Virus record (IMG/VR): IMGVR_UViG_2671181106_000001
Direction: 5' to 3' (one strand)
Source: a virus
Lineage: Duplodnaviria; Heunggongvirae; Uroviricota; Caudoviricetes
Length of the DNA stretch: 7,942 nucleotides
Numbering within the stretch: the first letter of the stretch is position 1; each line of letters begins with the position of its first letter. Under the pieces are notes generated by a model. That model worked only from the letters and a program-made list of their open reading frames with translations, was not told where the DNA came from and did no database searches. The position numbers and the translations under genes are program-made. Positions 2 to 88 of this stretch are shown piece by piece.

Positions 2-88
2 TCCATCACCACTGGCAAAAGAGATCATGTCCGGTATCTGATTTTCCCCTGTTCCTACATTCCGTTTTGCCGCTTCTCCCAAACCAAC
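2..88 (-). CDS. Partial open frame entering the presumed invertible segment; candidate 5' end of a silent alternative tail-fibre variable-region cassette, truncated by the window edge
   Basis: Minus-strand frame is open from the crossover site to the window edge (translation ...[31 protein letters not shown]...); one other minus frame has an early stop (TAA) and the third stops at the window edge. Position abutting the invertase crossover site matches the Mu G-segment / P1 C-segment layout. Only about 30 codons are visible, so an open frame is weak evidence by itself. Confidence 0.3.

Follow-up and report, generated by a model that had tools for sequence, protein, structure and literature searches.

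A DNA invertase gene lies close to the left edge of the 7,942-base stretch of prophage DNA analysed here (the window), and between this gene and the edge a minus-strand reading frame passes through a putative crossover site and leaves the sequence without meeting a stop codon. Is this frame the beginning of a silent, alternative tail-fibre tip that would be expressed only after inversion of the adjoining segment, or is it a gene in its own right, the remnant of a switch that no longer works, or a stretch of intergenic DNA that happens to be open? In the following, the window is analysed together with related prophages, from which the sequence beyond base 1 can be read.

Results and Discussion

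The prophage and its tail genes

The window comes from a P2-like prophage (Peduoviridae, Elveevirus-like), a class that is common in E. coli, and spans the right half of its late region. E. coli S21 and Escherichia phage Cartapus (Peduoviridae, Elveevirus) are annotated with the same gene order, and from the ORF list and this annotation of the collinear S21 prophage and of the phage the following features were assigned:

864-2036, plus strand: tail sheath gene
2046-2561, plus strand: tail tube gene
2616-2918, plus strand: gpE gene
3045-6122, plus strand: tape measure gene
6119-6604, plus strand: gpU gene
6601-7701, plus strand: gpD gene
864-7701, plus strand: the P2-type tail gene block as a whole (ORFs and collinear annotation)

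As this block is of the P2 type, the switch is located between the fibre and chaperone genes and FI, as in P2-like phages. The S21 prophage is 99.1% identical to the window over positions 1-900 and 97.3% identical over positions 1-7856, with one mismatch within positions 1-200, and the prophage is located in the chromosome in all relatives.

The open frame and the crossover site

The left end of the window holds the following features:

74-99, no strand: crossover site of 26 bp (TTCTCCCAAACC AA CGTTTATGAAAA), assigned by identity with pixR and by its match to the Din consensus
2-85, minus strand: 5' end of the putative silent cassette, 28 codons, assigned by its translation, its continuation in S21, its substitution pattern and its fused form
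88-136, minus strand: part of the same frame that extends beyond the invertible segment and includes two ATGs in frame, at 127-125 and 124-122
110-169, plus strand: leader of the invertase mRNA with a predicted hairpin (123-131 pairing with 145-153)
155-721, plus strand: serine DNA invertase gene of the Hin/Gin/Cin/Pin (Din) family, 188 aa
176-240, no strand: candidate Fis-dependent recombinational enhancer, suggested by a Fis-like 15-mer and a resemblance to the Hin enhancer

A preliminary description, made from the letters of the window, had pointed to a minus-strand frame that runs through the site and is open to the window edge, and this is indeed what is found: the frame is free of stops from 136 to 2 (45 codons, the last one ending at base 2) and crosses the site at 74-99. 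It is the only one of the three minus-strand frames that is open at the left edge, the other two meeting a stop after 8 codons and after 1 codon. Openness by itself was nevertheless rejected as evidence for coding, since stops are absent from 47% of the 29-codon and 37% of the 43-codon stretches of the window when all frames on both strands are counted. With 37-47% of equally long stretches being open, the frame might as well be a chance feature of the intergenic DNA beside the invertase gene. Against this stand the tail-fibre C-terminal homology of its product, the bias towards synonymous differences and the natural in-frame fusions described below, and with the in-frame fusion, 74 genomes that carry the fused form and the flipped strain 1105 the idea of a chance frame was refuted, leaving it a practically negligible probability.

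What makes the frame meaningful is the combination of a unique site, mostly synonymous differences and its continuation in near-identical genomes. The site is an imperfect palindrome of the dix type, 26 bp long with a 2-bp core, directly adjacent to the invertase gene. Read on the minus strand, its inner half-site TTCTCCCAAACC (74-85) gives GLGE; next to it are the central AA dinucleotide (86-87) and the outer half-site CGTTTATGAAAA (88-99). All 26 positions of the site are identical to those of pixR from the Pin system of e14, which is listed in Table 3 of PMC3241671. Scanning the window with the 26-nt Din-family consensus TTCNNNNAAACNNANGTTTNNNNGAA, allowing up to 2 mismatches, gave this site as the sole match, with one mismatch and 0.01 matches expected by chance. 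The invertible segment takes in only bases 85 to 2 of the frame, i.e. cassette codons 1-28, and bases 88-136 lie outside. When the first 20 codons (GLGE...PDM) were compared to those of five other cassettes, the ratios of synonymous to non-synonymous differences were 5:2, 7:3 and 7:1. At base 24 the window differs from every relative that was found, coding for Ile instead of Thr: a degenerate scan of IMG/VR returned seven contigs, all with G at this base like S21, where the window has A. Exact-match scans with patterns of 120 nt and 46 nt found no match in the species-representative genome collection.

The invertase gene, its leader and a candidate enhancer

The invertase (starting MLIGYVRVSTNDQ...) shows both the Resolvase domain (PF00239, E = 2.6e-53) and the helix-turn-helix domain HTH_7 (PF02796, E = 1.4e-15), and with a serine at position 9, a length of 188 aa and the HTH it has the features of a small serine recombinase (N-terminal catalytic domain with the active-site serine near position 9-10, about 190 aa, C-terminal HTH). 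Its identity is 100% to the S21 invertase, 86% to PinE (e14) and 75% to Gin (Mu).

The predicted hairpin in the leader (-26.6 kcal/mol, z = -3.1) covers the ribosome-binding site GGGGGA directly before the ATG at 155. It is weaker in the STEC1587 prophage (z = -1.9), and none is predicted for e14 (z = -0.6) or Mu, so that according to the folding model it may either be a lineage-specific brake on invertase translation or have arisen by chance.

The 5' part of the invertase gene contains a Fis-like 15-mer, GTGTCAACAAATGAC, with its centre at position 183, at a distance of 97 bp from the centre of the crossover site, and GATTTG and GTAATG come after it. In the enhancer of Hin, located about 100 bp from hixL, the sequence that separates the two Fis sites includes ATTTA and TAATG (PMC3798978), and by analogy the 5' part of the invertase gene probably contains a Fis-dependent enhancer. 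No second Fis-like match at the expected spacing of 48 bp passed a crude motif scan (G-N13-C with an A/T-rich centre).

Continuation of the cassette and the partner site in E. coli S21

To follow the frame beyond the window we used the locus of E. coli S21 (18.9 kb), in which position 9001 corresponds to window position 1. Three genes to the left of the window are of importance:

6459-7874, plus strand: tail-fibre gene, 471 aa, with an N-terminal P2 H-type collar (PF12571, E = 7e-65) and a C-terminal Gp53-like_C domain
7883-8278, plus strand: chaperone gene of the expressed side (PF02413 Caudo_TAP, E = 1.8e-24), convergent with the next
8250-8693, minus strand: silent chaperone gene (PF02413 Caudo_TAP, E = 1.9e-31), the next gene after the cassette on the same strand

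The early stop beyond the edge that would have spoken against a silent cassette does not occur in S21, where the frame continues for 95 further codons to a stop at locus position 8714. Counted from GLGE the full S21 cassette thus comprises 123 codons, and it matches the Pfam family PF21882 Gp53-like_C ('Putative tail fiber protein gp53-like, C-terminal') with E = 8e-13; a search of PDB sequences with the cassette gave a marginal match only, to the short tail fibre gp92 (E = 0.019). The idea of an alternative tail-fibre C-terminal segment is therefore borne out by the Gp53-like_C similarity in S21, except for its expected length of 150-400 codons, which the 123 codons do not reach. In S21 both cassettes have an assembly chaperone gene of their own behind them, and these two pairs, which lie outside the window, are convergent.

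The partner site is located in inverted orientation within the S21 fibre gene, where the inner half-site GGTTTGGGAGAA begins at codon 351 in phase 0. The frame is thus preserved across the partner site into a constant N-terminal region of a tail-fibre gene on the plus strand, as had been anticipated, and PF12571 is confined to this constant part. Exactly two sites matching the consensus are present in the S21 locus, inverted to each other at 7495-7520 and 9074-9099 (0.04 expected by chance), with TT and AA as their respective cores, which are compatible for inversion. They belong to an inverted repeat of 89 nt (7495-7583 with 9011-9099). A multi-site, shufflon-like system was considered as well and rejected, the S21 locus having two sites only.

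A shorter inverted repeat of 16 nt was found between S21 locus positions 8698-8713 and 9135-9150 (window 135-150), with ATCACCCTGAATAAAA and TTTTATTCAGGGGGAT being 94% complementary. As a result, the same ribosome-binding context TTTTATTCAGGG(T/G)GAT precedes both the silent tfa' and the invertase gene.

Taken together, the silent cassette at the left edge of the window very probably is the Sv' equivalent of an invertible tail fibre, with its extension beyond base 1 being read from the relatives. Judged from these sequences, the invertible segment is about 1.6 kb long and has the order Sv - tfa - tfa' - Sv', as in the G segment of Mu, the C segment of P1 and the P segment of e14.

Both orientations occur in natural isolates

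Inversion of the S21 sequence in silico at the central dinucleotides produced an uninterrupted fibre of 473 aa, composed of 350 constant residues and the cassette, and the same operation on the Cartapus locus produced an open fibre of 471 aa, so that in both relatives the frame is kept on inversion. The flipped arrangement also exists in nature: in E. coli strain 1105 the S21 positions 7507-9090, a segment of 1.58 kb, are present as the reverse complement with both flanks being about 99% identical. Searches with a junction query of 621 nt for the fused form and one of equal length for the silent form identified the fused junction in 74 complete E. coli genomes (counted at at least 80% of the query length; the best match covers all 621 nt at 99.8%), compared to 277 genomes with the silent junction. 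The cassette was found in both contexts among IMG/VR contigs too, and in phage Cartapus the silent slot holds the cassette type that is expressed in S21. With the in-frame fusion of 473 aa, the flipped strain and the 74 genomes, the proposal that the cassette joins the constant N-terminal part only after inversion is supported in near-identical relatives.

The annotation of strain 1105 (1700-4168) gives the genes of the fibre, the cassette and the chaperones as frameshifted or partial, and its alignment to S21 contains 13 gap positions over 1.6 kb. These gaps could be indel errors of the assembly or genuine decay.

For P2-like prophages of E. coli inversion has been observed experimentally by sequencing and PCR (PMC4272514). 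Both orientations among near-identical prophages, together with these published experiments on related loci, indicate indirectly that the segment may also invert in vivo in the source strain.

A stand-alone gene or half of a fibre gene

The cassette had been described as lacking both a promoter and a start codon. A search for promoter-like sites on the minus strand at 88-136 gave none, in agreement with the first part of this statement; the second part has to be modified, as two in-frame ATGs (127-125 and 124-122) are present just outside the segment. PGAP places the start at ATG 124-122, giving a 'gp53-like domain-containing protein' of 136 aa (8714-9124 of the S21 locus), and the same second ATG is used in the Cartapus annotation for a stand-alone CDS of 134 aa ('tail fiber protein'), with stfE of e14 being annotated likewise. 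The extension of 13 residues (MP....IFINV type) is open in every relative examined and reads MPFACYFFIFINV in e14 stfE.

It could therefore be asked whether the frame is simply a gene of its own, with the 136-aa protein being translated from ATG 124-122 whatever the orientation of the segment. The pair of ATGs just beyond the site would fit this, as would the extension that is also open in e14 stfE and in STEC1587. However, the outer half-site and the region upstream of the invertase supply the codons for the 13 extra residues, and it is the functions of these as DNA that account for the conservation of the extension. A promoter-like site is lacking on the minus strand, there is no properly spaced Shine-Dalgarno sequence as the GGGG abuts the ATG, the product would have neither the N-terminal collar nor the shaft for attachment to the baseplate, and in 74 genomes the cassette is fused in frame to the constant part. 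We therefore consider a stand-alone gene very unlikely. From the missing promoter-like site and spaced Shine-Dalgarno sequence and the missing baseplate-attachment domain it follows that the annotated start at 124-122 is most likely an annotation artefact and not the real N-terminus.

There is an equally slim chance that the ATG pair at 127-122, which is conserved in this prophage, STEC1587 and e14 stfE, allows low-level production of a free Gp53-like receptor-binding domain of 136 aa from antisense or read-through transcripts. If so, this domain might act as a decoy or as a modulator of superinfection, and nothing found here supports its expression.

Comparison with known systems

With the frame read as the silent half of an invertible fibre gene, the arrangement, which had been called unusual at first sight, is that of the classical Sv' cassette of Mu, P1 and e14. 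The closest system is the P segment of e14 in K-12 with its invertase Pin (pixL/pixR; ycfK-tfaP-tfaE-stfE-pinE). Besides the identical pixR and the 86% identity of the invertase to PinE, it shares the layout (constant fibre part, Sv, tfa, tfa', Sv', site, invertase), the inner half-site encoding GLGE and the extension of the frame across the outer half-site (MP..IFINV). It differs in that e14 is a remnant whereas the host element here is a P2-like myovirus prophage, that stfE and the Gp53-like_C cassette have only the first few residues in common, and that the outer half of the partner site is GGTATGCGAGAA here and GGTTTTCGAGAG in pixL of e14. The G segment of Mu with Gin (Sc-Sv-U-U'-Sv'-gin) and the C segment of P1 with Cin are alike in mechanism and gene order, with the invertase being 75% identical to Gin, and the Mu record annotates Sv' in the same sense ('encodes carboxyl terminal end of tail fiber protein (S') in G(-) phage'). 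In contrast, the segment of Mu is about 3 kb long with variable parts of about 320-340 codons, compared to about 1.6 kb and tips of 121-123 codons here; its gix sites have a GA core and half-sites different from those of the site at 74-99, and its constant part is Mu S and not P2 H-like (PF12571). Cartapus is collinear and 96.6% identical over window positions 11-900, and its annotation lists a 'DNA-invertase, Mu phage Gin invertase homolog' next to a minus-strand 'tail fiber protein', but its cassette pair and arrangement are different, with the expressed tip of S21 in the silent slot. The P2-like prophages of EPEC E2348/69 include one locus with three sites and four variants, compared to the two sites of the S21 locus.

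Over window positions 73-7856 the STEC1587 prophage shows an identity of 99.8%, and left of the site its cassettes are entirely different, with the homology breaking off at base 73, i.e. at the crossover site. Its silent cassette starts with GLGEGSALPVGVPVPWPSATPPTGWLKC and is identical to e14 stfE over these 28 residues. In place of window positions 1-73 the STEC1587 locus (2035-4013) thus holds a different cassette pair, the silent one being of the e14 stfE type. As judged from these sequences, whole invertible segments have evidently been exchanged between P2-like elements and those of the e14 type, the crossover site being the breakpoint. In the contig IMGVR_UViG_2744054454_000029 (around position 2437, reverse strand) a cassette start of the window type is joined across the core to another outer half-site and flank (AAGATTTTTGGTCAGAATACC...), which suggests that the same tip is used on a different constant fibre gene in another phage.

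The interrupted right end of the prophage

At the right end of the window, ogr, the P2-type gene for the late activator, starts at 7792 (MMICPLCGSAAHTRSSFQVS...) and is broken after base 7856. From 7857 on follows the terminal sequence of an IS100kyp element of the IS21 family, starting with TGTCAACGACGG, and the homology to all prophage relatives ends at 7856. The last 86 nt of the window are IS100 sequence with matches in about 3,000 E. coli genomes and also in plasmids. Late gene expression of this prophage is probably defective, and with ogr cut by IS100 the fibre genes may never be expressed in this host in either orientation.

The interruption of ogr at 7857 is also a point in favour of a further possibility, namely that the cassette is a fossil which descends from an invertible cassette while the switch or its output is dead here, either by leftward truncation of the segment or by the defect of the prophage. 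That the left flank lies beyond the available sequence leaves room for such a truncation, and the prophage is chromosomal in all relatives. On the other side, the ORF of the invertase is uninterrupted and shows 100% identity to its S21 counterpart, the crossover site agrees with pixR at every position, and the 85 nt of the cassette end that are present differ from S21 at one base. The e14 element, which is itself defective, still inverts in K-12 cultures (PMC4272514), and a loss of expression would leave the identity of the cassette unchanged. We regard a fossil as unlikely overall, even if it is clearly the most probable of the alternatives.

Proposed mechanism

A working silent cassette would be inverted in the way that is known from Hin and Gin. 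There, dimers of the invertase at two 26-bp sites assemble with the Fis-bound enhancer into an invertasome, and after cleavage at the 2-bp cores one pair of subunits rotates by 180 degrees before the DNA is religated (PMC3798978). By analogy, the Pin-type invertase (155-721) would bind the site at 74-99 and the inverted partner site in the fibre gene, which would lie beyond the window edge at a distance of about 1.55 kb, probably assisted by Fis on the enhancer in the 5' part of the invertase gene. Both sites would be cut at the central AA/TT, one subunit pair would rotate by 180 degrees and the DNA would be religated. After the flip, codon 350 of the constant fibre part would be followed in frame by GLGE and the rest of the cassette, the cognate assembly chaperone would come to lie downstream of the fibre, and the formerly expressed cassette would become silent. 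In the orientation of the window, the silent cassette occupies the invertase-proximal end of the segment, with neither a promoter of its own nor a translational start inside the segment. In this way two fibre tips, and presumably two host ranges, would alternate in the phage population. In Mu and P1 it is the alternation of the fibre tips that sets the host range. We infer the dependence on Fis and the enhancer, the cleavage chemistry, the effect on host range and also that the left flank of the window is the same as that of S21.

Conclusion

In summary, we are highly confident that bases 2-85 of the window are the first 28 codons of a silent cassette for a receptor-binding tail-fibre tip that is inverted by a Pin-type invertase. 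The kind of element is already known, and biologically it adds nothing new to the paradigm of Mu, P1 and e14. Its main value lies in annotation, as hundreds of E. coli genomes list the cassette as a separate 'gp53-like domain-containing protein' or 'phage tail protein', with the start ATG chosen by the pipelines sitting in the invertase upstream region beyond the crossover site. The correct gene model is obtained when the cassette is taken for the Sv'-type half of an invertible fibre gene, and for the prediction of host range two alternative fibres per prophage are then to be expected.
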